From the NCBI GenBank assembly GCA_021773215.1, contig JAJFKM010000074.1, positions 12,386-76,385 on the forward strand: 64,000 nt of DNA, written 5' to 3'. Made by a program: the position numbers and the translations under genes. Below, piece by piece: positions 3,331-29,578 of this stretch (its first letter is position 1; each line of letters opens with the position of its first letter). The notes under the pieces are model-generated. The model was not told the DNA's origin, made no database searches, and worked only from the letters and a program-made list of their open reading frames with translations. Origin of the DNA: Gammaproteobacteria bacterium (GTDB lineage Bacteria; Pseudomonadota; Gammaproteobacteria; Eutrophobiales; Eutrophobiaceae).

Positions 3331-4676
3331 TGAACAGATTAATATTTTTAAGCTTGCTCATCTTCCTGTCACCAGTTTCTGCTGATGAACCTAATGATTT
3401 ACAGTCACTGTTAGAACAAGTGAAAAAAGAACGTTCTCAAGAAAAAGAAGTTCTTTCGAAACGAGAGTCAAAATTTAAAAGCGCTCATAGCAAGCAAAAA
3501 GGGTTGTTAAGTAATGCGCTAAAAAAATTAGAGAATGAAGAAGCTCGCAGCACATCATTAAGAAAAAATTATGATACTTATGACCTTGAGATTACTAGAC
3601 AGAATGCAGTCTTAAAGGAAAAGATGGGAGCTCTCGGTGAACTTGATGGCATCGTCAAGCAAATAGCGGGAGATCTAGACGTCATAATTGATACCTCTCT
3701 CGTCTCAGCACAAAAACCCAATCGTGATGAAATACTTGATGTCTTAGCTAACCGTAAAGAATTACCTTCCCTAGAAGAATTGGAAGAGCTTTGGATTTTG
3801 GCTATGGATGAAATGGTCGAGTCAGGGAAAATTGTGACCTTCCCGGGAAAGATTGTCACCGCAGCCGGCAATGAGATTGAACAAAATGTAACACGCATTG
3901 GTGTTTTTAATGCTGTATCTGCGGGTCGTTTTTTAAGAAACTTACCTGAGACGGGTAAATTAATTGAACCTGGCAGACAACCTGGTCAACGTTTTTTAGA
4001 TATGGCACAAAATGTTGAAACTGCCAGTACCGGGATGCATGCATTTCCCATAGATCCAACACGCGGAGCGATGTTAGCCCTTTTGGTCCAAGTACCTGAT
4101 CTTAAAAATCGAATTGAACAAGGTGGTCTTGTTGGTTACGTTATTATATTCATCGGCCTGATTGGTGTTTTAATATCTTTAGAACGTTTAATACTATTAG
4201 TGACCACTAGTCGTAAAGTCAAAAAACAACTCAAGAGTAAAAAACCTGGCGACAACCCCTTAGGCCGTATTATGCAAGTCTATGAAAAGAACCCTGACAT
4301 TGATACTGAAACACTGGGACTGAAACTAGACGAAGCTATATTAAAAGAAATGCCTAGAATTCAACGTGGATTGGGAGCTCTTGCTTTACTTGCCGCTGTA
4401 TCCCCCCTACTTGGGTTACTTGGAACAGTAACGGGTATTATTGAAACATTTCAATCTATAACACTTTATGGAACTGGCGATCCACGTGTCATGTCTGGCG
4501 GTATTTCACAAGCCTTAGTCACAACAGTCATGGGGCTATTGGTTGCTATTCCCTTGTTGTTATCGCACAGTTTTCTTTCTTCTAAAAGTAATGCATTAAT
4601 TCAAATACTGGATGAGAAGAGTACAGCATTTGTTGCGTTACTCGCTGAGATAAACCGTATCAAGAATAATGTTTGA
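3330..4676 (+). CDS. Large MotA/TolQ/ExbB proton-channel protein (TtpC-like)
   Basis: 448 aa with a signal peptide and long coiled-coil N-terminal half. The C-terminal half carries the ExbB signature LLGLLGTVTGIIETF and three TM segments. Confidence 0.85.
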   Translation: MNRLIFLSLLIFLSPVSADEPNDLQSLLEQVKKERSQEKEVLSKRESKFKSAHSKQKGLLSNALKKLENEEARSTSLRKNYDTYDLEITRQNAVLKEKMGALGELDGIVKQIAGDLDVIIDTSLVSAQKPNRDEILDVLANRKELPSLEELEELWILAMDEMVESGKIVTFPGKIVTAAGNEIEQNVTRIGVFNAVSAGRFLRNLPETGKLIEPGRQPGQRFLDMAQNVETASTGMHAFPIDPTRGAMLALLVQVPDLKNRIEQGGLVGYVIIFIGLIGVLISLERLILLVTTSRKVKKQLKSKKPGDNPLGRIMQVYEKNPDIDTETLGLKLDEAILKEMPRIQRGLGALALLAAVSPLLGLLGTVTGIIETFQSITLYGTGDPRVMSGGISQALVTTVMGLLVAIPLLLSHSFLSSKSNALIQILDEKSTAFVALLAEINRIKNNV

Positions 4677-5184
4677 TCAAATAGACATCATGAGAGACTT
4701 CTTTGCTAAGGGCGGACCCGTCTTTACTGGCGTTTTTGTTTTATCAATATTTCTTTGGGCATTAATCATTGAGCGATATTATTTTATATATAAAGTTTAT
4801 CCAGTACGACTGGAAGCGATTGTTCAACAATGGCAAAAACGTCGTGAAAGGTCCTCATGGTTTGCGCTTAAAATCAGAGATGGTTTATTAAGCGAAATTT
4901 CAATCGAATTAAAACATAATCTGATCCCCATTCAGGCTTTGACGGGAATATTACCGTTACTTGGATTACTTGGTACTGTCACCGGAATGATTGCTATATT
5001 TGAGGTCTTAAACGTCTTTGGCAATGGCAACGCTCGCGGTATGGCAGAAGGCATATCCAGAGCACTATTACCAACAACAGCAGGCTTGGTGACTTCTATC
5101 ATTGGCATATACTTTAGCGCTGATCTCTATAAGCGGGCTAAAACGAAAGAGCTAATGGCTAAAGAACTACTAACACACAACTAA
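4669..5184 (+). CDS. exbB: ExbB/TolQ-family proton channel
   Basis: 171 aa with motif LPLLGLLGTVTGMIAIF and an 8-nt overlap with the upstream gene. Confidence 0.85.
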   Translation: MFDQIDIMRDFFAKGGPVFTGVFVLSIFLWALIIERYYFIYKVYPVRLEAIVQQWQKRRERSSWFALKIRDGLLSEISIELKHNLIPIQALTGILPLLGLLGTVTGMIAIFEVLNVFGNGNARGMAEGISRALLPTTAGLVTSIIGIYFSADLYKRAKTKELMAKELLTHN

Positions 5185-5186
5185 TT

Positions 5187-5591
5187 ATGAGACATACACA
5201 CACCAAGCATGAATCAGTTGCCGAAAGCGTTAATCTAACACCGCTTATCGACATGGTTTTTATCTTGTTGATATTTTTTCTTGTGACTGCATCTTTCACT
5301 AAAGAATCAGGAATTGATGTTGACCGTCCAACTGCACAGACAGCGGTCAGAGAAGAACAAGGCAGCATGATCATTGGCGTCAGTAAGGACGGTGAAATTT
5401 GGATCGACAGTCAAAAAGTTGATATGCGTGCTGTTCGTGCACATGTAGAACACTTGCACGCTCAAAATCCAGAAGGAACGGTCATCATCCTTGCTGATCA
5501 AAATGCGCGCACAGGAACGACGGTTGAGGTGCTTGATCAAGTTCGTTTGGCGGGTGTGACCAATGTGTCAATCGCAGCATCGAATGAATAA
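5187..5591 (+). CDS. exbD: ExbD/TolR biopolymer transport protein
   Basis: 134 aa. NLTPLIDMVFILLIFFLV carries the conserved TM Asp. The periplasmic domain is ExbD-like. Confidence 0.9.
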   Translation: MRHTHTKHESVAESVNLTPLIDMVFILLIFFLVTASFTKESGIDVDRPTAQTAVREEQGSMIIGVSKDGEIWIDSQKVDMRAVRAHVEHLHAQNPEGTVIILADQNARTGTTVEVLDQVRLAGVTNVSIAASNE

Positions 5592-5615
5592 TTAATTTTT
5601 CCCATTGTGTGAATC

Positions 5616-6308
5616 ATGCAATTTCCAAAACTGAATATTCTGGATACCGCGAAGATCCCGTCGGTAATTATTATTGCAATAGTTTTAAACATTGCAATTT
5701 TTATATTGATTCAGCAGTTGGTAAGCAACGAACACGCACTAGACTTAAACTTGTCTGATGTCAGCCTAGTAGAATTTATAAGACTGGAAAAACAACCAGA
5801 ACCACCCAAACCAAAAAAAGAAATTGATGAGATTGAGCCACCTCCTCTGGAAGAAGAGCCTCCTCCTCCAGAAATGGTTGAACCGCAAATAGAAAAACCT
5901 CAAACTATGCAAGCGGAACTATCTCCACCTAACATAAACATGCCTTTATCGCTATCAGGCACACCATACCTTGGTGACTTTGCGAAAAGCACAATAAAGG
6001 CCAAGCCCCGCAGTAAGCCATCAAGGCCTAAAATTGATACTAATGTAGTACCCACACTAAGAATCCCTCCTATCTATCCCCTACGCGCTTTGCGCAGTGG
6101 TATTCAAGGTGTTGTTACTGTCGAATTTACAATAGCAATTGATGGTTCAGTTAAAAATGCTGTCGTTGTAAAAGCTAAACCTCCTAAAATATTTGACAGT
6201 GCGGTTTTAAAAGCAATATCTAAATGGAAATACAACCCGGATATTATTGATGGAAAGCCAGTGGAAAAACGTGCGCGTCAAGACGTAAAATTTAAATTAA
6301 AACGATGA
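5616..6308 (+). CDS. tonB: TonB energy transducer
   Basis: It has an N-terminal TM, a Pro/Glu/Lys-rich spacer (EPPKPKKE...EPPPPE) and a TonB C-terminal domain (PIYPLRALRSGIQGVVTVEFTI...G). Confidence 0.9.
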   Translation: MQFPKLNILDTAKIPSVIIIAIVLNIAIFILIQQLVSNEHALDLNLSDVSLVEFIRLEKQPEPPKPKKEIDEIEPPPLEEEPPPPEMVEPQIEKPQTMQAELSPPNINMPLSLSGTPYLGDFAKSTIKAKPRSKPSRPKIDTNVVPTLRIPPIYPLRALRSGIQGVVTVEFTIAIDGSVKNAVVVKAKPPKIFDSAVLKAISKWKYNPDIIDGKPVEKRARQDVKFKLKR

Positions 6309-7543
6309 ACATATTTGCACAAAGACCAACATCAAAAAGCATTTTATTTATAATACTTGTGCTTTGCTGCAGTTCTCTCTTTGCTGAAGAAAAGAAGAAG
6401 ACTTATCAATTAGAGCCTAATGTGCATGCTGAACTAATTGGTATTCATCAACAAATTGATGAAGGACAAAATGGCGAAGCCCTAAAAAGGCTAAAGAAAT
6501 TAATCTCATCAAACAATCTTAAAGCTTATGATGCCGCCGTTGCTTATCAAACCATGGGCTTTGCTAAAAGCAATATGGGTGAGTTCAGTGATGCGGCAAA
6601 ACATTTCATCAAAGCATTATCTCTTGATGCTTTACCAGCAGATGTTACGCATGGCTTAAACTACTCTACCGCGCAGCTATTAATTCATATAGACAAAACA
6701 AAAGAGGGTTTAAAATACTTGTCAAAGTGGTTTGCTAAAGAACCTAAAGCGACGGGAGACGCACATATATTAGCTGCAACAGCTTATTATTATCTCAAAG
6801 ACTACAAACAACTTATCATCCATGTAGAAAAGGCGTTAGCTCTATCCGACAAGCCACCACTCAGCTGGTATGAACTGCTATTAGCTGGTTATTATGAGAT
6901 AAAAGAATATAAAAAGTCTGCCACACTACTTGAAACAATCATCAATAAGCACCCCAAAAAAACCAATTATTGGCTGCAACTAGCAGAGATTTACCAACGA
7001 CTGGAACAAAATAAAAAAGCCTTAGCTATTTATGAACTAGCCTATGCGAAAGGGTTGCTTAAAAAAGATGACATCAACCGTTTGATTAGTAACTATCTAT
7101 ATTTAGAAATGCCTTACAAGGCAGCTGTCATCCTTGAAAAGGAAATGGCTATTGGAGAGATTAACCCTGATATTAGAATGTTAACTCTACTCGCAGACAG
7201 TTGGCTACTTGCTCATGAAAATCAAAAAGCTGAACCTATATTTAAAGAAATCATTAAAAAATACAATGATGACCATACTCGGCTTCGATTAGGTCAACTT
7301 TATATTGAAGCTGAAGAATGGAAAAAGGTAGTTGAAGTGCTTGATGTTGAATTCAAGTCTGAAGGTAAGGTTTTATTGTCCAAAATTAACCTTCTCTTAG
7401 GTATTGCACAATATCATTCTAAAAATATGGACAAAGCAACACGGGCGTTTACACATGCATTATCTGACAAATCGACAGCAGAACAAGCTAGTTGGTGGTT
7501 GGATCATTTAAAGAATGAAACAACAAAAACACAAGACAGCTAA
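6305..7543 (+). CDS. TPR-repeat protein closing the TonB2 cluster (TtpD-like)
   Basis: It has a signal peptide and repeated TPR-like A/Y/L helices. ATGA overlap with tonB. Confidence 0.7.
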   Translation: MNIFAQRPTSKSILFIILVLCCSSLFAEEKKKTYQLEPNVHAELIGIHQQIDEGQNGEALKRLKKLISSNNLKAYDAAVAYQTMGFAKSNMGEFSDAAKHFIKALSLDALPADVTHGLNYSTAQLLIHIDKTKEGLKYLSKWFAKEPKATGDAHILAATAYYYLKDYKQLIIHVEKALALSDKPPLSWYELLLAGYYEIKEYKKSATLLETIINKHPKKTNYWLQLAEIYQRLEQNKKALAIYELAYAKGLLKKDDINRLISNYLYLEMPYKAAVILEKEMAIGEINPDIRMLTLLADSWLLAHENQKAEPIFKEIIKKYNDDHTRLRLGQLYIEAEEWKKVVEVLDVEFKSEGKVLLSKINLLLGIAQYHSKNMDKATRAFTHALSDKSTAEQASWWLDHLKNETTKTQDS

Positions 7544-7552
7544 GAAAGCACT

Positions 7553-8803
7553 TTATTGAAACGCTTCCAATACCTTAATTAATTCATTCGCAGTTTGTAT
7601 TCGATTATCCGGTTTCTTTGCTAGTAGAGAATCAACAGTATCCTGATATTGTTTCAACTTGCTTGGTAACTTTGGAATGGGTGCATGAATGTGCTGGTAG
7701 ATTAGCGAAGCAGCGGTTGCTGCGGTAAAAGGCTTATCTCCTGTAAGCAATTCATATAATATCACGCCTACACTATACATATCTGAGCGTGTATCAACGT
7801 CATTGCCCTCACCTTGTTCAGGACTCATATAATGGGGGGTGCCTAATATCTGCCCCACGGTCGTAATATCACTCACCTCATCTATTTTTTTTGAAATACC
7901 AAAATCTGCCAGCGCAAGACTGTCATCTCCACGAAACATAATATTGGCAGGCTTAAGATCTCTATGCACAACATTGATCGCATGAATTTGTGCAAGTCCA
8001 TAAGCAATATGAGTGGCATAGATAACAGCTATCTCATGATTTAAACCCAATTCGGCACGTTGTTTTAAATCACCGCGAGAAAAGAATTCCATTGCGATAT
8101 AGCCGTAATCTTCAGTTATTCCATGCTCAAAAATCTTAACGACGAATGGTGAGTTTAAACTGGCTATTAAATTTGCTTCCTGAATAAAGCGCGTCACTAG
8201 TTTAGGTTCATGTACTCGCGTCAAATCTAGTACTTTTAAAACAACCGTCATTTTGTCTGTTACACGTTCTGCCAAATAAACTTTTGACATTGCACCTTCA
8301 CCAATCATACGAACAAATTTATAACCAATATCTAAGCTGGTATCTGGTACTGCATCTTTCTTATGTACCTTCCTGATAAGCTGAGTGGCATCATTTATTT
8401 CATTTTCTTGATCTGTGTTTGAACGTTTTGAGAACTCAGTGGCTTCATCAACCATCTCTGCAATACGTTTCGGTTTGATATCAACCTTATTGATGTAATC
8501 AGCTGCACCTAATTTAATTGATTTAACAGCGATATATTCATCACCTTCAGCAGTAAGCACAATCGTCGGTGGAAATCCGGGCTTATCTCTGAACTCTTTA
8601 AGCCACTGTAAGCCATCTTCATCGGGACCTAACTTGTAGTCCAAAAATAATATGTCGTATTGGAACCACTGGAAATTATCAGGTGGCTTGCCGAGATTAT
8701 CAAAATCATATTCGATGACTTCTACATCTTTCAGTTCTTTATTCAGGTATAGCTTGAGTAATGCCCTGAAATCGCTGGAATCATCGATTATTAAAATTTT
8801 CAT
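7553..8803 (-). CDS. Receiver domain fused to Hanks-type Ser/Thr protein kinase
   Basis: REC residues are intact: DD (ILIIDDS), acceptor Asp in LFLDYKL, T in VLTAEG, K in YINK. Kinase motifs are intact: GEGAMSKV, VVLKVL, HRDLKPANIM, DFGISK, GTPHYMSPEQ. Confidence 0.9.
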   Translation of the reverse strand: MKILIIDDSSDFRALLKLYLNKELKDVEVIEYDFDNLGKPPDNFQWFQYDILFLDYKLGPDEDGLQWLKEFRDKPGFPPTIVLTAEGDEYIAVKSIKLGAADYINKVDIKPKRIAEMVDEATEFSKRSNTDQENEINDATQLIRKVHKKDAVPDTSLDIGYKFVRMIGEGAMSKVYLAERVTDKMTVVLKVLDLTRVHEPKLVTRFIQEANLIASLNSPFVVKIFEHGITEDYGYIAMEFFSRGDLKQRAELGLNHEIAVIYATHIAYGLAQIHAINVVHRDLKPANIMFRGDDSLALADFGISKKIDEVSDITTVGQILGTPHYMSPEQGEGNDVDTRSDMYSVGVILYELLTGDKPFTAATAASLIYQHIHAPIPKLPSKLKQYQDTVDSLLAKKPDNRIQTANELIKVLEAFQ

Positions 8804-9023
8804 ATGAATATTTGTTGTTTGAATAGCATGTGTCAGTTACGACAAAAAAATATTTTATTTAAAAAATGTTTTTAATTCAATTAATTATCACATATAAGTC
8901 ATCTTATTTCTTAATAAAGATACTTAGAAAATCCTATTTATAAAACAACAATTGATAATTCCTTGTAGTAGAACAAACAGCTCGTATCTGAATATTAGCG
9001 TCATGTTTCGATAATTCTTTGAT

Positions 9024-12000
9024 TTAAATCAGATATCCAGATTTTTTTTTATTAAATCTGCCAAATTTCAGCATGATGGCCGGCATGATAAGCAGGTTAA
9101 GTATAGTAGATGATGCCAATCCACCAATAATGATTGCCGCCATTGGCCCCATAATTTCGCGACCAGGGTTATCGCTATTAATGGCAATGGGCAACATTGC
9201 CAATGCAGTTACTAATGCCGTCATCAAGATTGACGGCAATCTTTCCTTTGCACCTTGTATTGCCACCTCAAGATTCCATGGCAAACCCTCTTCCTGTACC
9301 AGATACTGATAGTGTGAAACCAGCATGATTGAATTCCGAATAGTAATTCCAAAAAGCGTAACAAACCCCACCAGAGAACCAACTGAAAGTCCCCCACCGG
9401 TAATCAATACCGCTATTACACCGCCTACTAATGCAAATGGTAGATTGATTAACATCAATAACACATGCCTGAAACTGCCAATAGCGATGTAAATTAACAT
9501 CATCACGATAGCCAACACTAAAGTCGATAGTACGATCAATTCCTCTTTTGCCTTAGCTTGCTCAATTGCAGCTCCGGTGAACTCTGGATAAATTTCAGCA
9601 GTAAATTCAACCTCTGCAAATATGGTATCTTCAAGATCATCCATGAAACTGACAATATCTCGATTAATAACATTGCTAGTAATGCTCTGTAATCGTTGTC
9701 CATCCTGATGCAAAATATTGTATCGACCACTCTGTTGTCGTATATCCGCAAATTCTTCCAAGGGCAACAATAAACCTCCGGCAGTTTTTATGGGTAATTG
9801 ACGCACATCATTAGGTGTTTGACGTTTGTTTTCAGGCAGGCTGACCACGACATTGAAAATTCGATTGTCTTCCTGATATTTCGCAACAGACAATCCTTCG
9901 AATCCAGTTTTAATACTATCCACGACTTCAAGTGGGGTAAGACCGTGCTCTTTTAATTTATCCAGTCGTAATGCAATCTGTAATAGTGGTGTCGGAGTGG
10001 AAGACTGAACTTGTACGCTGCTAGCACCTTCGATTTTTTTCATCACCGCAGCAACTTCCGTCGCTTTTTTGTCTAGCGCATCCAGATCATTACCATAGAT
10101 ATTAACGACTATTGGCGTGGTATATCCCGAGATAGTTTCGTGTATACGTTCAGATAAAAAATTATGTGCTTCATAGCGTAAGCCAGGAAAATTGTTCAAT
10201 GTATCGCGGATGCTATCTAATACTTGCTGCTGTTCTGAACCACTTAAGTTGATATCTAAATCAACTTCAAATTCACTATAGTGACTGCCAAATGTATCAG
10301 CACCACGTTCAGCCCTACCTGACCAAAGAGAAACAGAAACTACTCCCGGGATATCCATAAACAACTCTGAAACTTGATTGCCTACACGAATCGACTCTTT
10401 TAGTGAAGTACCAGAGATACTTGAGGTGTGAACAATATAATGACCTTCTCTGAGGTTAGGAATAAATTGTCCGCCAACACTTGGCAATATCGATAAACCG
10501 GACAAGCATAAGAGTATTGTTGAAATAATAACCAAGTAGGGTGAACGCGAGATTAGTGTTAGTGCCTTTTCATAATACGGCTGCAGCATATTGATTAGTG
10601 GTGGCTCAATGTTTTTCAGTTTGTCTTTTGCCAGAAGCACATAACACAATGCCGGCGTTACCGTTAATGCAACTAATAAGGACATCATGATTGACAGTAT
10701 GTAGGCCATTCCTAGTGGAGCAAACAATCGTCCGGTAATACCACTTAAATGCAATAAAGGAACAAAAACTAAAGCCACAATAAAGCTGGCATAAACAACA
10801 GAACCGCGCACTTCCATAGATGCATTATAGACGACTTCTTTCATCGGCAATGGCTTGCTTAAAAGTTTGTTTTGTCTTAAACGTCGAAATATATTTTCAG
10901 TATCAATGATGGCATCATCAACAACCTCGCCCAATGCAATAGCCAAACCACCAATCACCATAATATTCAAATTCACGCCAAGCTCTAATAAAACCAGAAT
11001 GGCCGTCAATAACGACAAAGGAATCGCCATCACTGAAATAAATGCTGTCCTGAAGTTGAATAAAAAAATCACAAGTACCGCAACAACGAATAGACCGCCT
11101 ATCAATAAATGTCCGGTAATACTACTCACAGAACGTTCTATATAATTAGCCGGCCGAAATAAAGTAGGATGAAGTTTGATATCGTTTTCAGCAAATATAT
11201 CGTCGAGGTCTTGAATGGCCTCTTCAACAGCATTCGATACATTCAAGGTATTTGCACCATATTGACCGATAACCATTAGAACAATGCCTTCTTTGCCCAA
11301 TATAGATCCGGCACCAAAGCTAGGTTCTGCACCGTAATCAATATTAGCAACATCACCAAGTGTGATGCTCACTCCATCAATATGTTTGACGACAACTTGT
11401 TCTAGTTCATCAATTTGTTCCGGCAAGCCTGTTAAACTTAAACTCAAGCGTTGATTACTATTTTCAATGAAACCGGCGCCAAAGATCCCTGTTGCCTGTT
11501 TCGCTGCATCAGCAACTTCATTGATCCCGATATCAAATTGCCGAAGTTTATTTTCATCGATCTGGATTTGCAACTGCTTTACATCGCCACCAAAGACATT
11601 AACATCTGCGACACCCGGCACACTTAATATCGTTGGCACCAAATTCCAATCAACCATGCTGCGCAGTTCCATCATATCTTTGCTAGATGAAGTCACACCC
11701 ATGGTTAAAATTGTTGCCGACGATGAAGCCATAGGCACCGGTACAGCAGGACCAACCCCCTCAGGCAATAGATTAATTAATCCAGCAAGTCTTTCCGATA
11801 CGAGTTGACGATTACGATAGATGTCCGTGTCTTCTTCAAAATAAATATTTACTATCGACAATCCTTGTATTGATTCTGAACGAACATGATCGATACCAAT
11901 AAGGCCAGACAAAGTAGTTTCTATTGGTCGGGTAACAAGAACTTCAACCTGTTCGGTTGAATAGCCAGGTGCTTCTGTTTGCACAACAATCAAGTTCGGA

Positions 12001-20281: not shown

Positions 20282-21685
20282 TTACAAATTATATTTTTTG
20301 ATACGGTAACGTAATGCCATTCGGGTAATACCTAGTTCTCGTGAGGCCTTTGAGACATTACGATTAGTACGCTCTAACGCTTGTTTGATCAAATGTAGTT
20401 CTGCTTCGCCTAAGGTCAGGTCTTCGTTCATTTCATTTTCACTTGCTTTGACACTTCCCTTTTTATCAAGCCCAAGAATATCTGCATCGAGCAAGCCACT
20501 GCCATTTAACAACACAGCGCGTTCGATTAAATGTTTCATCTCTCGCACGTTCCCCGGCCAAGCGTAGTCTTGTAACATATCACTGGCTTCATCGGTAAAA
20601 CCTTCAAACTCTAAACCATAGCGTCTCGAAGTTAGCGCAGCAAAATGGTTGGCTAATAATAAGATATCATCGTCTCGTTCTCTTAAGGCCGGCATGGAAA
20701 GTGAGATAACATTTAATCTATAGTATAGATCCTGTCGAAACTCACCTCTCTCCGCGAGAGTTTCAATGTCACGATTTGTTGCTGCAATAATCCATGCCGC
20801 AACAGGGCGTTCCTGTGTTGTTCCTACCCTACGTAAGGTACGACGTTCAAGGACTGCTAATAATTTGGATTGCAAATCTAGTGGCAATTCACCAATTTCA
20901 TCAAGAAATAACACACCATCTTCTGCAGCCTCGATTAAACCTGTGCGCGCGACATGCGCATTAGTGAACGCACCCTTTTCATGACCAAACAATTCTGACT
21001 CGATTAAATCTTTTGGTAACGATGCACAATCAACATGCACGAATGGTTTTTCATATCGGGCGCTGCTCGCATGTAATAAACGTGCAACGACATCTTTACC
21101 TGCTCCGGTCTCACCCAATATAAGCACTGTAGGTGGAATGATTGAACCGGATTGAGACAGTTTTGATATTCGCTCAACCTGTCCGCGGACATCCTTGATC
21201 TTTTTGCATTCACCTAAAAAGTCAACTGATTCGATTGCGTGTTGTTCGCGCTTTACTGAGTACGTCAGTTTTTGTGTTAATTCATTTTTATCAAATACTT
21301 TTTCTACATTAAGCAGTAGTTCTTCCAGATCGATTGGTTTCTTTAAATAATCTGAAGCACCTAATTTCATAGCCGATACAGCATCTTCTAATTCACCATA
21401 GGCCGACATAACGAGCACAGAAATATTTGCATTTGATGACTTTATCTCAGAGAGTAGGTCTAGCCCGGAGCCATCGGGCAAACGCATATCGAGTAAAATT
21501 AAGTCAGGTGCATGCTCATTAAACTCGCTTCTCGCGATCTCCAGATCACCAGCCAAAAAGACTTTATAGCCTGCACGCTCCAAATGTTTTTTCACTGCCT
21601 TTGCAAAGACAGCTTCATCTTCTACTAACAATATTTTCTTTTCGAGAACAGGGACTTCAGCAGATGTAATCAATGGTTCACTCAC
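20282..21685 (-). CDS. Sigma54-dependent response regulator (NtrC family: REC + AAA+ + Fis HTH)
   Basis: REC (ILLVEDE...LILLDMRLPDG), Walker A GETGAGKD, ESELFGHEKGAFTNA and C-terminal HTH NVSKASRELGITRMALRYRIKKY. Confidence 0.9.
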   Translation of the reverse strand: MSEPLITSAEVPVLEKKILLVEDEAVFAKAVKKHLERAGYKVFLAGDLEIARSEFNEHAPDLILLDMRLPDGSGLDLLSEIKSSNANISVLVMSAYGELEDAVSAMKLGASDYLKKPIDLEELLLNVEKVFDKNELTQKLTYSVKREQHAIESVDFLGECKKIKDVRGQVERISKLSQSGSIIPPTVLILGETGAGKDVVARLLHASSARYEKPFVHVDCASLPKDLIESELFGHEKGAFTNAHVARTGLIEAAEDGVLFLDEIGELPLDLQSKLLAVLERRTLRRVGTTQERPVAAWIIAATNRDIETLAERGEFRQDLYYRLNVISLSMPALRERDDDILLLANHFAALTSRRYGLEFEGFTDEASDMLQDYAWPGNVREMKHLIERAVLLNGSGLLDADILGLDKKGSVKASENEMNEDLTLGEAELHLIKQALERTNRNVSKASRELGITRMALRYRIKKYNL

Positions 21686-23156
21686 TCGTGCCTACCTCGC
21701 TTAAACTATGTATTGGTGCAGCAATTATCACTTCGGTTCCTCGATCTTCTATGACATTAAACCTTAAGTTCCAGCCATGCTTTTGACAAATCTTGAACGC
21801 AATGGGGATACCTAAACCAGTACCAAAACGTTTTGTTGATGGTCCCGGTTCAAAATTACTGGGTTTAGGTTCGAAAGGTAAGCCAGGACCGCTATCTAGA
21901 ATATGAATCTCAATATAATCCTCGGCATGAAAAATATTTATATCAATGGTACCTAATACTGGAGAGGCATCGACCGCATTTGCTAACAGTGTATATAAAG
22001 CTTGTTCCATCAAATCCGGATCTACTTTTAAGAGTTGTGATATTTCCCAACCCGATTTTGTAACCTCGATTTTCTTTTCCAGAATTTTATTAATGAGTAA
22101 GCCTAATGCGGCATCAACCAGATCAGATGCCTTTGCTTCTACTAAGTTGGGCTTCAATGGATGCAGGTATGAGACTAATGAACTGACCCAACGACCTAAT
22201 CGATCAATTGTTTCAATAATCGCCTCTTTGGATTCATTTATCTCTTCTTGATTTTCTGCATGCTCTAATAATTGGGCTGTGGCCCTGATACTCGCAAGAG
22301 GATTACGAATATTGTGCGCAACAACAGGAACCAATGCCCCTAACGCTGCTTGTCGTTCATTCTCAATTAATGCATTTCTATTCTCTGTTAGTTCAATCGC
22401 CATTTTATTAATAGCTGTCGCTAGGTCGGAGACTTCTTCTACGCCCTCTTCTTCTATGTGGTGCTCCAGATTGCCATGACTGATCTCACCGGCGCCACGC
22501 ATGACATTGGCTATCGGTTTAATAAAGCCTTTACGCATCACTTGCCTGGTATAAATAACAATAATAAAAGCGATGATTAACGGTATCGGAATGATAAACG
22601 GCGCGAATTTAGTCCACACCGCTAATGTCTCGCCTAATTTTTTATGCTTGTCTGTCAATAGTTCTTTAAAAGCGCTATACCTATTTTCAAACTTACCTAC
22701 CATCTGTTGGGCGAAGGCTGGGTTCAGGATTTGTATTCTTGCAAACTGATCAGCAACGTATGGGTTATCAAAAATATTATTCATATCCCGCTGGATTTCA
22801 CGGTACGACAGGTTTAGTTCTTGTATCGCATTGTCTGCTTCCCTCGACCTGGAATTTTGTCGCAATTCGTTAAAACGTTCAGAGATACTCCGTGAATATT
22901 CGGGATAGGCTTCAAATGCGCGAGAATCTTCTAAAACTCGAGCTCGTATCATCTCCTGAATTTGGGCATAGAGTTCACCCCTGATCTGTTCTGTAAGATA
23001 AAACATGGAGTTAATACGCACGGATTCTGCAGAGTTTTGATGCCAGAAATAGGCTGAAAGCCCGCCTAGGAGACCGGTTACCGCAACCAGAAATAAAATT
23101 GCTACTTCATGTAGAAATAATAGGTTTTTTAAAGACTTAGGTCTGCTAAATGCCAT
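21678..23156 (-). CDS. Membrane sensor histidine kinase (HAMP + HisKA + HATPase)
   Basis: Two TM segments, H-box VAHNIRNPLASI and G-boxes DSGPGL / GTGLGI. It overlaps the response regulator gene by 8 nt. Confidence 0.85.
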   Translation of the reverse strand: MAFSRPKSLKNLLFLHEVAILFLVAVTGLLGGLSAYFWHQNSAESVRINSMFYLTEQIRGELYAQIQEMIRARVLEDSRAFEAYPEYSRSISERFNELRQNSRSREADNAIQELNLSYREIQRDMNNIFDNPYVADQFARIQILNPAFAQQMVGKFENRYSAFKELLTDKHKKLGETLAVWTKFAPFIIPIPLIIAFIIVIYTRQVMRKGFIKPIANVMRGAGEISHGNLEHHIEEEGVEEVSDLATAINKMAIELTENRNALIENERQAALGALVPVVAHNIRNPLASIRATAQLLEHAENQEEINESKEAIIETIDRLGRWVSSLVSYLHPLKPNLVEAKASDLVDAALGLLINKILEKKIEVTKSGWEISQLLKVDPDLMEQALYTLLANAVDASPVLGTIDINIFHAEDYIEIHILDSGPGLPFEPKPSNFEPGPSTKRFGTGLGIPIAFKICQKHGWNLRFNVIEDRGTEVIIAAPIHSLSEVGTSE

Positions 23157-23616: not shown

Positions 23617-24147
23617 CTATCCGAACCACATCCTCTTAAACAATTCGGTTTCCTTCCTTTTCATGTGATACACCACTCCTGCTATATGCATAACAAGCAA
23701 TACGACTAGACAAATAGCGCTAATTTCATGGATCTGGGTAAACAATTCATTCATTTCCGGATTTTTATCAGCCCACCTTGGAAGCGGGATACCCCAGAAT
23801 CTCGTACTGTACTTGGTAAATGAAGATGAGATATAACCTGAAACAGGTTGTATGAACATCATCAAATATAATAAATGGTGTGTTGCTTTAGCCATTTTCT
23901 GATGTGTTGCTGACACAATATCTGGCAAGGGTGGTGATGTTGAGATGAGCTTCCAAGCCAGTCGGGTAATAGCTAATAGTGCTAGTGTCAGACCGATTGA
24001 TTTATGCAGGGTAAAAAACCAGGTGCGTTCTTCTGAGCCTTTTGGCAGATCAGACATATAGACACCCATACAAATCATGGCAATGATCATAATGGCCATA
24101 AGCCAATGGATTATTATAGCCGTTGTACTGTAACGCTGAATTTCCAT
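23617..24147 (-). CDS. Cytochrome b561 family protein (CybB-like)
   Basis: 176 aa with four TM helices and conserved His positions (IIIHWLMA, LHKSIGL, HHLLY, HIAGVVYH). Confidence 0.8.
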   Translation of the reverse strand: MEIQRYSTTAIIIHWLMAIMIIAMICMGVYMSDLPKGSEERTWFFTLHKSIGLTLALLAITRLAWKLISTSPPLPDIVSATHQKMAKATHHLLYLMMFIQPVSGYISSSFTKYSTRFWGIPLPRWADKNPEMNELFTQIHEISAICLVVLLVMHIAGVVYHMKRKETELFKRMWFG

Positions 24148-24330
24148 GATATTTCATATACCCCAAGTGTTAATGTCTTAAACAATGATTCGGTGAACTA
24201 TCTGGCATTTGGCCATTAATATCAGGATAATACTATCGCAATATGACATTTGGTGAAATGCCAGCCAGATTTGGGTTTAGTAATAATTGATAACATCCTA
24301 AAGGGTTTAAAATCAGGTATAAAAATAATA

Positions 24331-24891
24331 ATGCGCCATTTTCTTTGCCTTACTTCATTATTCATAGTCAGTCTCTCTGTCATGACTTCAGCATATGCTA
24401 ATGAGTATCAATTATTGGTTTCAAAGAAGAATAACGAGCTTATTGTTGAAAAATCCGGGCAGATAGTAAAAAAATATCATATTGCCAGTGGTAAAGGCGG
24501 CAAGGGTACCAAGCGCTTGCGTGGTGATAGTAAAACACCTTTAGGCATGTATCGAGTAGCCAGTGTTAAAGAAAGCAGCCGCTTTCATTTCTTCATTCAG
24601 TTAGATTATCCAAACTTGATAGATGCCTGGTACGGCTATAAGAATGAAATTATTGATGCAAATAATTTTAAACGTATCGCTACGGCTTACAAAAAGCGCG
24701 AAGCGCCTCCACAAGACACTGAATTAGGTGGCTTCATTGGAATACATGGCTTGGGTATTACTAACGAAGAAAAATTAAATATTCATGAGTCCTTCAATTG
24801 GACTGAAGGTTGTATTGCCTTAACCAATGAAGAAATAAATGACCTGAAAAAATTTGTCGCCATTGGCACACAAGTCATCATCAGAGAATAA
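24331..24891 (+). CDS. L,D-transpeptidase (YkuD) family protein
   Basis: The signal peptide MRHFLCLTSLFIVSLSVMTSAYA begins at the ATG at 24331. The catalytic motif is IGIHGLG...NWTEGCIAL. The track start at 24250 adds an unlikely N-terminal extension. Confidence 0.8.
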   Translation: MRHFLCLTSLFIVSLSVMTSAYANEYQLLVSKKNNELIVEKSGQIVKKYHIASGKGGKGTKRLRGDSKTPLGMYRVASVKESSRFHFFIQLDYPNLIDAWYGYKNEIIDANNFKRIATAYKKREAPPQDTELGGFIGIHGLGITNEEKLNIHESFNWTEGCIALTNEEINDLKKFVAIGTQVIIRE

Positions 24892-25441
24892 TCAGCCGGT
24901 GCCAAACAAAAATCAACTATGTCTGTCCGCTAATTTTCTAGTCATACAATTTTCTAATGTAAAACTTATCAGATTATCGACGCAGCTAATTACGCTGTGT
25001 TTTTTTGTATTCCTGTTTGGCTGTTCAAATGAAACTGATCAGATCTATGAAAAAACGACTCAAAAATCATTTCAAGATGTCTTGCAGGACGCCGAATTTG
25101 CTATAACAGAAAATAACTTTCGTATCACAAATCGTCTTCATATAGGTAAGGCAATACAGGAACGCGGTAATACCGATTTCCCACAAAATGAGATTATTCT
25201 ATTCTGCAATCTGGAAATAGCGGAAGACATGCTAAAAATTGAACCTCGTTATATTAATTATTGTCCATACAAGATAACTGTCACAGACTCAGGCGGTACT
25301 GTCACCATCGGTACACGTCTTTTACCGTACATAACAGATAACCCAGAAATGGACAATATCTCTAAATACATAAATACAATTCTAAACTCGATGGTAGAAT
25401 ATGCAGCATCAGAAGACCCATTTATACTTGACGATAATTGA
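24854..25441 (+). CDS. DUF302 domain lipoprotein (start codon uncertain)
   Basis: Lipobox FLFGC follows KLIRLSTQLITLCFFVF. The core is DUF302-like (FQDVLQDAEFAITENNFRITN...ILFCN...YCPYKITV). No ATG/GTG/TTG lies near the signal peptide; the only one in frame is the TTG at 24854. Confidence 0.6.
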   Translation: MSPLAHKSSSENNQPVPNKNQLCLSANFLVIQFSNVKLIRLSTQLITLCFFVFLFGCSNETDQIYEKTTQKSFQDVLQDAEFAITENNFRITNRLHIGKAIQERGNTDFPQNEIILFCNLEIAEDMLKIEPRYINYCPYKITVTDSGGTVTIGTRLLPYITDNPEMDNISKYINTILNSMVEYAASEDPFILDDN

Positions 25442-25456
25442 AGGGCACAAACATAA

Positions 25457-26200
25457 ATGAAAGAACATCCGGAACATAGTCTTTTACTGCGCTGGCTCAT
25501 TTTGACTGGCCTTATCGCATTTTCTTTAATAGTTGCCTGGAATGAAGGCATCATTTCCTCATTATTCAGCGTCGATCAAAGCAATATTTGCTGGGTAATC
25601 GCATTGGCATACCTATTAGTCACACTGCATTGCGCGAGAAGAATATATACGCTTTCATTACAAACAAATCTATCTGTGGAAGTTGATGGCATTATTAAAA
25701 ATGAAGAGAAACTTGATTTAACGATAAATGACGAAGAAGTCATGATTAATTCAAAAGTTAAGCTGCCCGATTGCTTCATGACAGAATATATTAGAGATCT
25801 CCACTATCGGTATAACAATAAAAATAACTCCGAAGACTCCGGCTCATCTACTGATTTAATAGATGTTTATGAATCACGTTTAAAAGGTCCTCAGGAAATT
25901 GGCTGGTTCGTTTCCGATATGATGTTAAAACTGGGGCTGCTCGGCACGATCATCGGCTTTATATTTATGCTGGGTTCCGTCGCCAATATTGCTGATTTCG
26001 ATGTTAGTGGTATGCAAAAGATATTGAAGCACATGAGTAATGGTATGGGCACCGCTCTATATACAACACTCGCGGGATTGACCTGCAGTATTTTATCGGC
26101 AACTCAATATCATATGCTGGATAGACATGCCGATGAGCTGATTGAATTAACGCGTCATCTGACACAAGTCCATGTCATTCCGAAGATCACAGGGAATTAA
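25457..26200 (+). CDS. MotA/TolQ/ExbB-family proton channel, divergent orphan type
   Basis: 247 aa. The C-terminal TM pair carries the family signature KLGLLGTIIGFIFML ... GMGTALYTTLAGLTCSI. The N-terminal half has extra TM segments and an Asn/Ser-rich loop. Confidence 0.75.
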   Translation: MKEHPEHSLLLRWLILTGLIAFSLIVAWNEGIISSLFSVDQSNICWVIALAYLLVTLHCARRIYTLSLQTNLSVEVDGIIKNEEKLDLTINDEEVMINSKVKLPDCFMTEYIRDLHYRYNNKNNSEDSGSSTDLIDVYESRLKGPQEIGWFVSDMMLKLGLLGTIIGFIFMLGSVANIADFDVSGMQKILKHMSNGMGTALYTTLAGLTCSILSATQYHMLDRHADELIELTRHLTQVHVIPKITGN

Positions 26201-26206
26201 TTAGCG

Positions 26207-26800
26207 ATGAGCGTTAAAGATCGTCTTCGTTCAGACCCGTTCACAGACTTGCTCTTTAATGCGCTTCTGGGCTTTACCTTTCTGTTTCTGGTTGCAATCA
26301 TGTTTATGAATCCAGAAGCAAAGTCAGGCATCATTGACCCCAAAGCAGAATACATAATCACGATAACCTGGGAAGACAATAGTCCCGATGATGTGGATAC
26401 ATGGGTGGAAGATCCGGAAGGTCAGATATTGTGGTTTAGAACACCTGAAGCCGGTTTACTACATTTGGATCGTGATGATCGTGGCTTGGTCAATGACACA
26501 ATTACTATAGCTGGGGAAGAAGTCCAAAACCCACTAAATCAAGAAGTTGTTACACTTCGTGGTGTCGTAAAAGGTGAATATATCGTCAATCTACATTATT
26601 ACGCCTCTGAAACAGGCACACCCGTTGACGTAAATGTGAGGTTGGTCAAGGTAAATCCAAAGCTGGAAGTTATATACTATGGCACGGTTAACCTTGAAAA
26701 GAGGGGCGATGAGAAAACAGCTGTACGATTTAAGATTGGCGGTGATGGTGACGTATACGGCATAAACTTTCTGCCAAAAAATCTTGTTGAGCTTGGTTAA
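26207..26800 (+). CDS. Single-TM protein in ExbD/TolR position with unrelated periplasmic domain
   Basis: DPFTDLLFNALLGFTFLFLVAIMFM places Asp14 (nt 26246-26248) at the cytoplasmic edge of the TM, as LIDMVF does in the ExbD at 5187. The remaining ~160 aa is beta-rich (ITITWEDNSPDDVDTWVEDPEG...GEYIVNLHYY) and not ExbD-like. Confidence 0.5.
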   Translation: MSVKDRLRSDPFTDLLFNALLGFTFLFLVAIMFMNPEAKSGIIDPKAEYIITITWEDNSPDDVDTWVEDPEGQILWFRTPEAGLLHLDRDDRGLVNDTITIAGEEVQNPLNQEVVTLRGVVKGEYIVNLHYYASETGTPVDVNVRLVKVNPKLEVIYYGTVNLEKRGDEKTAVRFKIGGDGDVYGINFLPKNLVELG

Positions 26801-26826: not shown

Positions 26827-27339
26827 GTGATATTGGGTATAACCGGGATAATTTCAGCTTATATATTGATAGGCTTACTATTACTTAGCATAAACCTTTA
26901 TTCAAGATGGTCTTGGAAGGTTAAGGCCGCAAGCATAATCATTACATCAGCATTTTATGTTGTAACGTATTTTTCCTTTCCACCATTACTCGGTTGGCCA
27001 ACTTCTGAAAATTTACCCCCACAATTTCGTTTGATATCTGCCCATGTTGAGCAACCAAACAAAGAAACCGGCAAAGAAGGTTCCATTTATCTATGGCTAT
27101 CTGAAATAGAAAATATGTCTAGCGCATCTGAACCAAGGGCATATGAATTAGCCTATTCAAATGAGTTACACGAAAAGATTATTAATGTTAAAGCCAAGCT
27201 CGATAAAGATATAGCTCAGTTGGGTGAATTTAAAGATCCTGATGAAACAATGGATCAAGTGCAAGAACAAAGACGTGGTGTAAAATCGGTTCATATTGAA
27301 TTTTATGATTTACCTGACCCACTCTTCCCAGATAAGTAG
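26827..27339 (+). CDS. Small membrane protein, two N-terminal TM segments, no recognisable family
   Basis: GTG start preceded by ggag. Two hydrophobic helices are followed by a charged soluble tail. It is 26 nt from the upstream gene and 14 nt from the downstream gene. Confidence 0.5.
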   Translation: MILGITGIISAYILIGLLLLSINLYSRWSWKVKAASIIITSAFYVVTYFSFPPLLGWPTSENLPPQFRLISAHVEQPNKETGKEGSIYLWLSEIENMSSASEPRAYELAYSNELHEKIINVKAKLDKDIAQLGEFKDPDETMDQVQEQRRGVKSVHIEFYDLPDPLFPDK

Positions 27340-27353
27340 GAGGCAATAAATAA

Positions 27354-28856
27354 TTGAATAGAAACATTACGTCTCTATTATTCTTTTTAACTCTATCGGC
27401 ATATTCCGGATACGTAACTGCGTGGAATACATTAACTGATAATCTTGATGTCAGTTGTCAGCAGTCAGAGACTGTTCTCAACTGTACATACCGCCCCCTA
27501 GCTTCTGGAACAACACCTGATATCTTAGCAAAATCAAATGGTGCTAATCTTGAAGTAATCAAAATAAGCCAATACCCCGGAGCTGGCGATACAAACGCCA
27601 TCTTATTCCTAGTCGATACTAGTGATCCTAAAAGACAGAATGTTATTGAACAAAACAGATCACATATAAAAGAACTCTTAACATTCCTAGGTCCACATAA
27701 TAAAGTTGGGCTGGCATCGTTTGACAAATCTATACAATTTTTATCTCCAGTAGGATCATCAAGATTTTTACTATCGAAATCTATAGACACATTAAACGCT
27801 ACTGGAAAAACAACAGAGTTATATCGCAACCTCATTAAAGCTATTGACCACCTAAAGTCATTTAATGCAGATAGAAAAGTAATTACTTTAATGTCTGATG
27901 GTCAGGCAGAAGATAAGGCTTACTTTCATTCTGATGTCATTAAATCAGCAAGAAAATATGGAGTGATCATAAATTCTATAGGATATCCAAGATCAATTTC
28001 ATTATCCGTTTCTTTGCAAACCATTAGACGCTTAAGCGAAGAAACTGGCGGCAGTTACATTGAGACTGATATGAGTTATGGACTTCCATCAAACCAGTTA
28101 AAACCTTTGATGAATAATGTGGATAATGGTGGCGCGTTCTCTGTTGAATTAGAACCTCTGTCTCAGACTAGTCCTGCTCCCAAAAAAATAACGCTGTCCT
28201 TCAAGGATGCTAATGAAACAGAAAATATAAGCGTGCCTGTACGAATAAAATCAATTGAAAAGCCTGTTCAGAGACAACCCAGCGTCATTATTCCTGAAGT
28301 TGTGAATCCTGATAAAGTAAGCCCTGAAAACAACCTGCCAATTCAGATTGTAACTAAACAAGCAGACAATCAAGCAATCAATTTATGGCTTTGGTACGGG
28401 CTCCCTGCTGCTTTTATCATCATCATCATATTTATATTAATTACATTATTTTTGTTGTGGAATCGTCGTCCTGAAACGAAGATTATTTCAGACAGTAATT
28501 ATAAGCCCTATGCTTATTTAATTGCCGGTGATGGTAGTGAGACCCGATACCCAATAACACGTACAATTTGGCGAATAGGTCGAAGCAAAGATAATGAATT
28601 AACTTTGAATGACACCTCACTCTCCCGGCGTCATGCTGAAATTCACAGAAACAGCAATGGTACTTTCGATATTATTGACATGAACTCAATGAACGGCGTC
28701 TATATTAATAACGAAAAGATTGGAAAGGCGGAATTACATGAGGGCGATGTTCTTGAGATCGGGGATATCTTTCTACACTTCACACAGCTAGCTTCTGATT
28801 ATTCACTTGAAGAATCAACCGTCATGCAAAAAACAAAAGTACCTATCACGCACTAA
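27354..28856 (+). CDS. Signal peptide - vWA domain - TM - FHA domain protein
   Basis: AGGAGG sits 10 nt before the TTG start. vWA motifs are ILFLVDTSDP, ATGKTTELY and ITLMSDGQAED. The TM is LWLWYGLPAAFIIIIIFILITLFLLW. The FHA core is WRIGRSKDNELTLNDTSLSRRHAEI...NSMNGVYINNEKI. Confidence 0.8.
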   Translation: MNRNITSLLFFLTLSAYSGYVTAWNTLTDNLDVSCQQSETVLNCTYRPLASGTTPDILAKSNGANLEVIKISQYPGAGDTNAILFLVDTSDPKRQNVIEQNRSHIKELLTFLGPHNKVGLASFDKSIQFLSPVGSSRFLLSKSIDTLNATGKTTELYRNLIKAIDHLKSFNADRKVITLMSDGQAEDKAYFHSDVIKSARKYGVIINSIGYPRSISLSVSLQTIRRLSEETGGSYIETDMSYGLPSNQLKPLMNNVDNGGAFSVELEPLSQTSPAPKKITLSFKDANETENISVPVRIKSIEKPVQRQPSVIIPEVVNPDKVSPENNLPIQIVTKQADNQAINLWLWYGLPAAFIIIIIFILITLFLLWNRRPETKIISDSNYKPYAYLIAGDGSETRYPITRTIWRIGRSKDNELTLNDTSLSRRHAEIHRNSNGTFDIIDMNSMNGVYINNEKIGKAELHEGDVLEIGDIFLHFTQLASDYSLEESTVMQKTKVPITH

Positions 28857-28864
28857 TCATTTAG

Positions 28865-29578
28865 TCAGATTATAGGACTGGTTAATTTAATATAATCATC
28901 GATTAGCTTTGTCATGTCTGATTCATCTAACAAAGCTTTATCCTCGCCAAACCATTCTTGTTTGTTCTCAATAATTAACCTCGATATATTTATTGCGACG
29001 ACTTTCCCTTTGTCATTTTTACATTGCTCGGAGGCATTAACTAATAATGATGTGGCTGCTCCCATTACAACTTCTCTATGTTTTTGTAATACCGCATCTA
29101 ATCCCACCTCTGTATGAATATGACTATTCTGCACAGGTTTAATAGTTTGAATAACAAAGGCTATTAATGCACTAAATTCATCAGGAACCGATATTCGACT
29201 AACCATCGCCCAGCGATATAAATCAATAGGTAAAACCTCCCATTTGTCAGCTGAATTATCGAGATTTACAACTGATAGTAGTTTTTTATGAACACATTCC
29301 TGCGCATGTTTCCATAGTTCTTCTGTCTTATCTGAAACATCGTCACCAGATTCATTAGTATCCGGATTTATTCCAAATAATAATGGGATCCCTTCTTGCT
29401 GGAGTAACCAGTTATCCTTGCATATCCATTTTTCATATAATTTTTGCAGTCTTAAGTGGTCTTCATCATAGACATTTCTTTCACGTTCACTCATCGTCAT
29501 TTCTGCAGGAGCTTCCGCTACTGATACTTCTTTATCAATGCCAAATAATGATGTTTTAATTTTATTAATAATATTCAT
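28865..29578 (-). CDS. Hypothetical protein, no recognisable motif
   Basis: A 237-aa ORF lying 15 nt downstream of the DUF455 gene on the same strand. It converges on the vWA-FHA gene with an 8-nt gap. Confidence 0.5.
   Translation of the reverse strand: MNIINKIKTSLFGIDKEVSVAEAPAEMTMSERERNVYDEDHLRLQKLYEKWICKDNWLLQQEGIPLLFGINPDTNESGDDVSDKTEELWKHAQECVHKKLLSVVNLDNSADKWEVLPIDLYRWAMVSRISVPDEFSALIAFVIQTIKPVQNSHIHTEVGLDAVLQKHREVVMGAATSLLVNASEQCKNDKGKVVAINISRLIIENKQEWFGEDKALLDESDMTKLIDDYIKLTSPII

Follow-up and report, generated by a model that had tools for sequence, protein, structure and literature searches.

A conserved three-gene unit with a MotA/TolQ/ExbB-type channel gene and a candidate axle protein bearing a YfaP/DUF2135-like head, in proteobacteria and phages

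ExbD, TolR and MotB share a common layout, in which the N-terminus lies inside the cell and a lone transmembrane (TM) helix carries an Asp. Motors of the MotA/TolQ/ExbB type are, to our knowledge, the only route by which inner-membrane energy reaches the periplasm and the outer membrane of Gram-negative bacteria, and each new output of such a motor that we know of (flagellum, Ton, Tol, gliding, type IX secretion system, Zorya) has opened a field. Here we analyzed a 197-amino-acid (aa) protein, termed B, which has this same layout and is encoded in a stretch of 64,000 nucleotides (nt) from a Gammaproteobacteria bacterium (contig JAJFKM010000074.1; the window). Its gene is preceded by that of a MotA/TolQ/ExbB-type channel protein (A) and followed by that of a further membrane protein (C; Table 1). 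B is probably the Asp-bearing axle of a proton motor resembling the Tol and Ton systems, and the three proteins would form an as yet unnamed three-component machine of the inner membrane, while any specific physiological role is put forward with much less confidence.

The gene order of channel, single-pass Asp protein and third membrane protein is the same as in TolQ-TolR-TolA and ExbB-ExbD-TonB. A resembles TolQ and ExbB in carrying the GLLGT and TT pore motifs and in having these two proteins as its best matches among solved structures, but differs from them in its four predicted TM segments, as opposed to three. Similarly, the TM helix of B aligns with that of ExbD, Asp on Asp, and its gene adjoins one of the ExbB/TolQ type, whereas the head of B is all-beta and YfaP/DUF2135-like instead of displaying the alpha/beta fold of ExbD and TolR, has no PF02472 match and is attached by a short linker of fixed length. 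In contrast to TolA and TonB, C contains two TM helices and a compact domain, and lacks an SHLS motif, a conserved TM His, an extended linker of the Pro-rich or helical kind and a TonB_C or TolA domain. The flagellar stators MotA-MotB and PomA-PomB are comparable in having an A protein with four TM segments, a B protein whose lone helix carries an Asp near its cytoplasmic end, and the two genes side by side. However, B has neither the OmpA-like peptidoglycan-binding domain of MotB and PomB nor a MotB_plug match, its linker comprises only about 14 residues, the shorter versions of A (148-175 aa) lack the large cytoplasmic torque-generating domain of MotA, and no flagellar genes are found nearby. 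Since the head and linker of B as well as C lack the features that define ExbD/TolR, MotB/OmpA and TonB/TolA, respectively, the unit, as judged from its sequences, would work like the Tol and Ton systems without being a member of them.

TPH-vWA axles and vWA "force transducers" encoded beside tolQ-like genes are described in section 8 of an article (Mol Biol Evol 2025, PMC12204202), which states that further such motors are still to be discovered. As in the unit analyzed here, TolQ-like pentamers are combined there with non-canonical Asp axles or with vWA partners. In the systems of that section, however, the vWA domain is part of the axle itself, or an SHLS helix is found in a TonB-like vWA protein, whereas here the axle bears a DUF2135-like beta domain and a separate conserved C is present. 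The vWA protein encoded in the window also differs from those of PMC12204202 in having its vWA domain before the TM segment, no TM Asp and a cytoplasmic FHA domain. The A-B-C family is not among the systems of section 8, and a literature search returned no mention of DUF2135 and nothing on the triad, a YfaP link, rhizobiophage or phage-encoded copies of TolQ/ExbB, although absence from that search is not proof of novelty.

The membrane Asp of B and the pore of A

Asp14 of B is encoded by a GAC codon at nt 26246-26248. Hydropathy analysis placed the sole TM segment at residues 15-33, and an AlphaFold2 (AF2) model calculated with a 116-sequence alignment as input (mean predicted local distance difference test score, pLDDT, of 93.4) contained a single helix of slightly wider span (Table 1; pLDDT 95-97), within which the family motif F-x-D-L-L-F-N-x-L-L-G-F is located. 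Because the N-terminus is basic (family consensus RR-RY), it is predicted to be cytoplasmic, and Asp14 would lie close to the end of the helix on that side, probably one turn into the membrane.

A search of 5.8 billion proteins yielded 4795 homologues of B, and the family comprises at least 1805 clusters at 50% identity (E <= 1e-3). None of these 4795 proteins has a functional name; those with a name are mostly listed as "hypothetical protein", and a few JGI records carry the label "uncharacterized protein YfaP (DUF2135 family)". Alignment with hmmalign revealed that Asp14 was kept in 130 of 138 aligned representatives of the 50%-identity clusters, 118 of 119 profile hits, all 80 viral copies and 79 of 80 genomic copies, that is in 94-100% of the homologues depending on the set, and Asn18, one turn further on, was almost as highly conserved. 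With an overall identity of only 35-50% among the sequences that share it, conservation of Asp14 is far beyond chance. In 116 full-length representatives, whose identity to the query was 34-52%, residues W55, D62, D64, D90 and G93 were invariant, while D14, P70, L87, D91, G103, N111, E113, R118, G123 and P151 were at least 90% conserved. Copies without Asp14 were mostly N-terminally truncated gene calls. A genuine departure from the pattern was displayed by a small subfamily (P0123, P0196, P0209 and P0231) with the sequence EEPFDPFxVMLFK, in which Val occupies position 14 and Lys position 18, and an Asp is retained four residues upstream (FDPF).

The TM helix was also compared with that of the ExbD encoded in the window (5187-5591; Pfam ExbD 4e-32), which carries LTPLIDMVFILLIFF. 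BLASTP gave no match between B and this protein. In hhalign, the B family profile aligned with it over one segment only, SDPFTDLLFNALLGF on LTPLIDMVFILLIFF with Asp over Asp (P 0.0046, probability 7.6%), while the same profile run against the TonB, C and vWA-FHA proteins of the window as TM controls resulted in P values of 0.16-0.34 and no TM match. Weak, sub-threshold matches to Pfam ExbD (PF02472) were observed in two of the 116 B relatives, and a 58-residue N-terminal fragment of the relative P0236 matched positions 7-53 of that model at 8e-4, covering the TM region. Taken together, the Asp-on-Asp segment, the negative controls and the P0236 match point to a link between the TM helices of B and ExbD that is weak but specific. 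No further copies of B were found in the window. The initial annotation had described B as a candidate stator partner with an ExbD-like lone helix and a protonatable Asp14; open reading frame, codon, hydropathy and AF2 model agree on this layout, and the expected conservation of Asp14 was borne out by the alignments, although it is not absolutely universal considering the Val14 subfamily.

The gene for A ends 6 nt before that for B in the window, and its product matched Pfam MotA_ExbB at 8.4e-10 (38.9 bits with a cut-off of 22.9). Its pore motifs GLLGT and ALYTT contain T164 (nt 25946-25948) and T204 (nt 26066-26068), both of which were kept in every aligned copy of A (78/78 to 79/79, from 80 genomic and 79 viral loci). 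The copies of A from genomes, SAR11 and phages range from 148 to 258 aa and share W13, G160, G163, T164, G167, A200, T204 and G207 as invariant residues. A family profile of A, made from eight sequences with a slight bias since one was the window's own ExbB, matched the solved structures of TolQ (7e-8), ExbB (2.5e-5), MotA (3e-4), PomA (0.01) and ZorA (0.013), with GLLGT over TolQ GLFGT and ALYTT over TolQ ALIAT. According to PMC12204202, the pore threonines of TolQ, ExbB and MotA surround the Asp of the B subunit.

These observations bear on the possibility that B is a mere membrane-anchored periplasmic beta protein, for example of a binding or chaperone-like YfaP type, whose co-transcription with a TolQ-like gene is due to chance and whose Asp carries no protons. 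Such a role would be in line with the kinship of its head to YfaP, which is not known as a motor component, with the weak TM similarity to ExbD and with the existence of the Val14 subfamily. It is nevertheless very improbable, as 94-100% of very divergent sequences keep this charged residue, together with Asn18, in their only TM helix, B invariably adjoins an A with intact pore threonines in bacteria as well as phages, and stand-alone operons contain no other ExbD/TolR/MotB-like gene, which would leave A without its obligatory partner.

The linker and periplasmic head of B

The distance from D14 to W55 was 41 residues in most sequences and ranged from 39 to 45 across all sets. The linker itself comprises about 14 residues with conserved N35-P36 and K46-A47-E48. 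A linker this short and of fixed length would hold the head right against the A ring on its periplasmic side, from where it is unlikely to reach the cell wall. The remaining residues of B, approximately 157, are acidic (28 D+E compared with 15 K+R) and include the motifs ITITWEDNSPDDVDTWVEDPEGQILWF, HLDRDDRG and GEYIVNLHYY. In the AF2 model the head consists of 12 beta strands (pLDDT 97-98 for the strands) without any helix following the TM segment, and W55, D62, D64, P70, L87, D90, D91, G93, N111, E113 and R118 form its conserved columns.

B had no above-threshold match in Pfam or NCBIfam and none in PADLOC or PHROGs; Pfam OmpA and MotB_plug did not match, nor did ExbD (PF02472) even at E <= 1. 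Neither the protein on its own nor the family profile gave a significant match to PDB sequences; the profile only picked up a jelly-roll stretch of Tk-subtilisin, "tLxW...D.DLyl.dPnG" (E 0.4), and a virion protein. Foldseek comparison of the AF2 model to the PDB gave no match at E <= 1e-3. Its best-probability matches (7wwo and 4qey) were generic Ig-like or beta-sandwich structures with TM-scores of at most 0.42, and no ExbD, TolR or OmpA entries were among the 50 matches listed. In BFVD only unnamed viral beta-sandwich proteins were found (E >= 7.5e-5, TM-score <= 0.5).

A relationship emerged at the level of family profiles. The B profile aligned with E. coli YfaP with an hhalign probability of 91.7% and an E value of 7.8e-7 over 75 columns (residues 45-137 of B, 139-216 of YfaP), while three other proteins run as controls resulted in P values of 0.16-0.34. 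The motifs W-x6-D-x-D-L-x-V-x-x-P-x-G and G-x-Y-x-V-x-x-x-Y are common to the head of B and YfaP. Pfam DUF2135 (PF09906) did not match B, with sub-threshold matches in nine of the 116 relatives (best 6e-4), because the model covers only 48 positions (YfaP 199-244), of which just the start overlaps the span aligned by hhalign. The head of B is thus remotely related to the YfaP/DUF2135 beta domain, from which an 18-residue insertion (at about residues 94-112) and additional strands at the C-terminus set it apart. The similarity to YfaP was confined to its residues 139-216; nothing like the N-terminal TM segment of B was found in it, and the E. coli K-12 cluster yfaA-yfaT-yfaS-yfaQ-yfaP (yfaS encoding an alpha-2-macroglobulin) contains no annotated MotA/TolQ/ExbB-type gene nearby. 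The acidic, beta-rich character of a periplasmic part that is neither ExbD nor OmpA, as proposed in the initial annotation, thus agrees with the domain searches, the all-beta model and the lack of a significant Foldseek neighbour, and its loose reminder of DUF2135 proved apt as regards remote homology to YfaP, though not as a Pfam DUF2135 match of B itself. Assignment to the pre-peptidase C-terminal domain was rejected, with sub-threshold matches in nine of the 116 relatives only, and was retained merely as the same broad motif. It is speculative that the cluster of D62, D64, D90, D91 and E113 might bind a divalent cation or a positively charged ligand.

The position of the head bears on a further explanation, namely that A-B-C is a gated ion channel and not a motor, with A and B providing a leak for protons or cations that the periplasmic head opens. 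In phages, such a leak would serve to depolarise the host membrane or to energise it anew (for lysis timing, shut-off of the host or killing similar to abortive infection), and in bacteria it would act as a stress valve. The conserved Asp and Thr pore elements support ion passage, the short fixed KAE linker puts the head at the channel mouth like a plug, many phages carry the unit, and no outer-membrane or wall-binding part was detected with Pfam or Foldseek. On the other hand, a strictly conserved C with its own periplasmic domain would be superfluous if the unit were a simple leak, and many free-living lineages, among them the streamlined SAR11, have the unit on the chromosome in a syntenic position. 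Moreover, all characterised MotA/TolQ/ExbB relatives transduce work. We regard this explanation as distinctly unlikely.

Subunit C and the distribution of the triad

C contains a basic loop between its two TM helices, and its C-terminal 115 residues are therefore predicted to be periplasmic. Conserved motifs include GWP, PRAY and a C-terminal YDLPDPxLPEK tail. The AF2 model, with database homologues as alignment input, displayed a small alpha/beta domain (pLDDT 77.5). C had no match in Pfam, NCBIfam or PADLOC, and none by PDB sequence search or Foldseek. Comparison by hhalign connected it to the gene products following B in Pelagibacteraceae (99.8%), in a Val14 locus (99.9%) and in Rhizobium phage RHph_I1_9 (EVC04_148; 92%, E 6e-7). 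Homology of C to TonB or TolA was considered and found to be unsupported, with no Pfam, PDB or Foldseek match.

The best 80 GTDB loci and the best 80 of 408 IMG/VR contigs were examined for gene order. B and C were adjacent in all 80 GTDB loci, and the complete triad was present in 79 of these, the remaining one ending at a contig end, which means that every complete locus encodes A-B-C. The three genes were adjacent, co-directional and often overlapping. Adjacency of A and B, in 79/80 genomic and 78/80 viral loci, agrees with the earlier view of a membrane-anchored B tied to its upstream channel gene; the cassette envisaged around it, however, corresponds to A-B-C with the 170-aa gene that had gone unnoticed, and the vWA-FHA gene belongs to close relatives only. 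The GTDB loci span Gamma- and Alphaproteobacteria and one Nitrospirae metagenome-assembled genome, with Methylohalomonas lacus and Spectribacter hydrogenoxidans as cultured carriers. In alphaproteobacterial and Nitrospirae loci (L060, L064, L067 and L072; about 8100-11000), one to three tandem genes for lipoproteins of approximately 245 aa with a conserved N-terminal "YFPL..G..W.Y" motif follow C. Distant homologues of B (26-29% identity) were also noted on Azospirillum chromids of 1.7-2.0 Mb (H30-H36, e.g. NZ_CP012915.1 986060-986575).

In Pelagibacteraceae (L091-L093), the triad is a stand-alone operon encoding an A of 173 aa, a B of 198 aa and a C of 201 aa, and is flanked by unrelated, oppositely oriented genes. 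The SAR11 B is 60.5% identical to a viral copy compared with 53% to the closest of the 80 genomic copies, which suggests host-phage exchange. By tblastn, B was detected in 29 genome records of isolated Rhizobium and Sinorhizobium phages, whose copies keep the Asp, and the triad was checked in two of them. Rhizobium phage RHph_I1_9 (L089, MN988532.1 105343-106832) encodes A-B-C, the gene before B being MotA_ExbB-like (9e-5), and phage 16-3 (L090) a divergent triad (p038/p040/p042). A relative of B was encoded on all 408 IMG/VR contigs, and in the best 80 (L095-L174) A-B-C was colinear and mostly overlapping in 77, with C following B in 77-78. The flanks comprise more than 400 unrelated gene clusters; since they include a terminase large subunit, a T4-type DNA polymerase (1.7e-193) and primase, the contigs are taken as genuine phage genomes. 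Many phages would thus encode a motor kit of the MotA/TolQ/ExbB type.

The presence on phages recalls the ZorA-ZorB pair of Zorya, which is also a non-flagellar MotA/MotB-type pair and whose ZorA models are matched weakly by A (PADLOC 6e-6; NCBIfam 0.006, 15.5 bits with a cut-off of 500), over the TM core only. A-B-C could accordingly be viewed as a Zorya-like device for envelope surveillance or inter-phage competition, in which the head and C sense a perturbation such as an incoming phage and signal inward, in this genome through the vWA-TM-FHA protein. Apart from the partial ZorA matches, this would fit the occurrence of the unit on many phages including the temperate 16-3, where superinfection exclusion genes are common, the adjoining FHA domain as a phospho-threonine signalling module, and an SNase-like gene just upstream in one locus (L082, a Val14 locus). 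However, the ZorA matches reflect the shared TM core, A (148-258 aa) lacks the long ZorA tail, B lacks the peptidoglycan-binding domain of ZorB, B and C have no PADLOC match, and no ZorC-, ZorD- or ZorE-type effector genes were found near the window locus. Furthermore, the unit belongs stably to the core genome, where its neighbours are housekeeping genes, and most loci have no vWA-FHA gene. A Zorya-like function is thus unlikely.

Neighbouring genes, proposed mechanism and significance

Table 1. Features of the A-B-C locus and of other genes in the window
Feature	Position (nt)	Strand	Evidence
YkuD L,D-transpeptidase	24250-24891	+	Pfam YkuD 1.7e-17
DUF302 protein	24854-25441	+	Pfam DUF302 1.5e-10
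A subunit, 247-aa MotA/TolQ/ExbB-type channel protein, four predicted TM segments	25457-26200	+	Pfam MotA_ExbB
B subunit, 197-aa single-pass protein	26207-26800	+	Open reading frame and translation; homologue search; AF2 (pLDDT 93.4)
B TM helix, residues 11-34, with Asp14 and Asn18 one turn on	26237-26308	+	AF2; conservation
B linker, short and of fixed length, residues 35-48, conserved N-P and K-A-E	26309-26350	+	D14-W55 spacing; conserved K46, A47, E48
B periplasmic all-beta domain, residues 49-187	26351-26767	+	AF2; invariant columns; hhalign to YfaP
C subunit, 170 aa, two N-terminal TM helices and alpha/beta domain of about 115 aa, predicted periplasmic	26827-27339	+	Synteny; hhalign; AF2
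Lineage-specific accessory protein, 500 aa: signal peptide, periplasmic vWA, TM (residues 350-368), cytoplasmic FHA	27354-28856	+	Pfam
237-aa open reading frame	28865-29578	-	No Pfam match
Divergent upstream genes: sigma-54-type response regulator, histidine kinase, cytochrome b561-like gene	20282-23156, 23617-24147	-	
Complete TonB2-type cluster: DUF3450, 448-aa MotA_ExbB (TtpC-like), ExbB, ExbD, TonB, TPR	2557-7543	+	

The gene following C in the window encodes the vWA-FHA protein (Pfam FHA 5.9e-20, VWA 2.6e-8), which was found only in the closer gammaproteobacterial relatives. It was rejected as a core part or axle on account of its absence from most loci and the lack of an Asp in its TM segment, but may link the motor to phospho-threonine signalling. 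Upstream of A, about 55 of the 80 genomic loci have a YkuD gene, which is absent from the alphaproteobacterial, SAR11 and phage loci. Membership of YkuD and DUF302 in the unit is uncertain, and the adjacency of YkuD hints at a connection to the cell wall in that lineage only. In most gammaproteobacterial relatives, synteny with the YkuD/DUF302/A-B-C block extends to the divergent regulator, kinase and b561-like genes, which may therefore regulate this block. Many relatives also keep the 237-aa open reading frame, which lies between tilS and the triad region.

By homology with solved 5:2 motors, copies of A would form a pentameric ring around two B TM helices, with Asp14 facing the ring of Thr164 and Thr204 and being alternately protonated, and proton flow down the membrane potential would turn A relative to B. 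Given its anatomy, the unit would deliver its output close to the membrane through the head of B and the periplasmic domain of C, which would be an obligate partner and may take work out of the motor in the manner of TolA or TonB. Output partners would vary by lineage, with the vWA-FHA protein acquired as an extra partner in that of the present genome, lipoproteins elsewhere and none additionally encoded in phages and SAR11. A-B-C would thus be self-contained and able to work in free-living bacteria as well as when delivered by a phage.

Several observations weigh against a motor of this kind. The TM similarity of B to ExbD is weak (hhalign probability of 7.6%), and the Val14 subfamily is still flanked by the A and C genes. 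The analogy of C, which lacks an SHLS/His motif and a long linker, to TolA and TonB is one of position alone. With the head held at the membrane, a rotary stator would have no obvious fixed anchor, and cation binding is guessed from the pattern of residues. The sole A-B fusion encountered (P0185, 411 aa) was rejected as a natural one, as it displays frameshift-like low-complexity stretches with read-through into a normal B start and is probably an assembly or gene-calling artefact.

Going beyond the axle role of B, we tentatively suggest, at slightly less than even confidence, that A-B-C represents a third branch of Tol/Ton-like motors, characterised by a cation-binding, membrane-proximal head and an output partner with two TM helices. 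It might serve as a portable module with which phages (T4-like marine, rhizobial and the temperate 16-3) perform mechanical or signalling work on the host envelope during infection, for instance superinfection exclusion or envelope stabilisation, and might have a core envelope function in SAR11 and many Proteobacteria.

The family of B is large, with at least 1805 clusters, has no functional name in the libraries searched and occurs in the most abundant marine bacteria. The occurrence of the three-gene module in hundreds of phage genomes means that viruses appear to import a proton-driven machine of their own. With A starting from 148 aa, B of approximately 200 aa and C of approximately 145-200 aa, it offers a minimal system for how an axle without a wall anchor transmits work, for which Sinorhizobium phage 16-3, the T4-like Rhizobium phages, Methylohalomonas lacus and Spectribacter hydrogenoxidans provide tractable models, with Azospirillum as a possible host.

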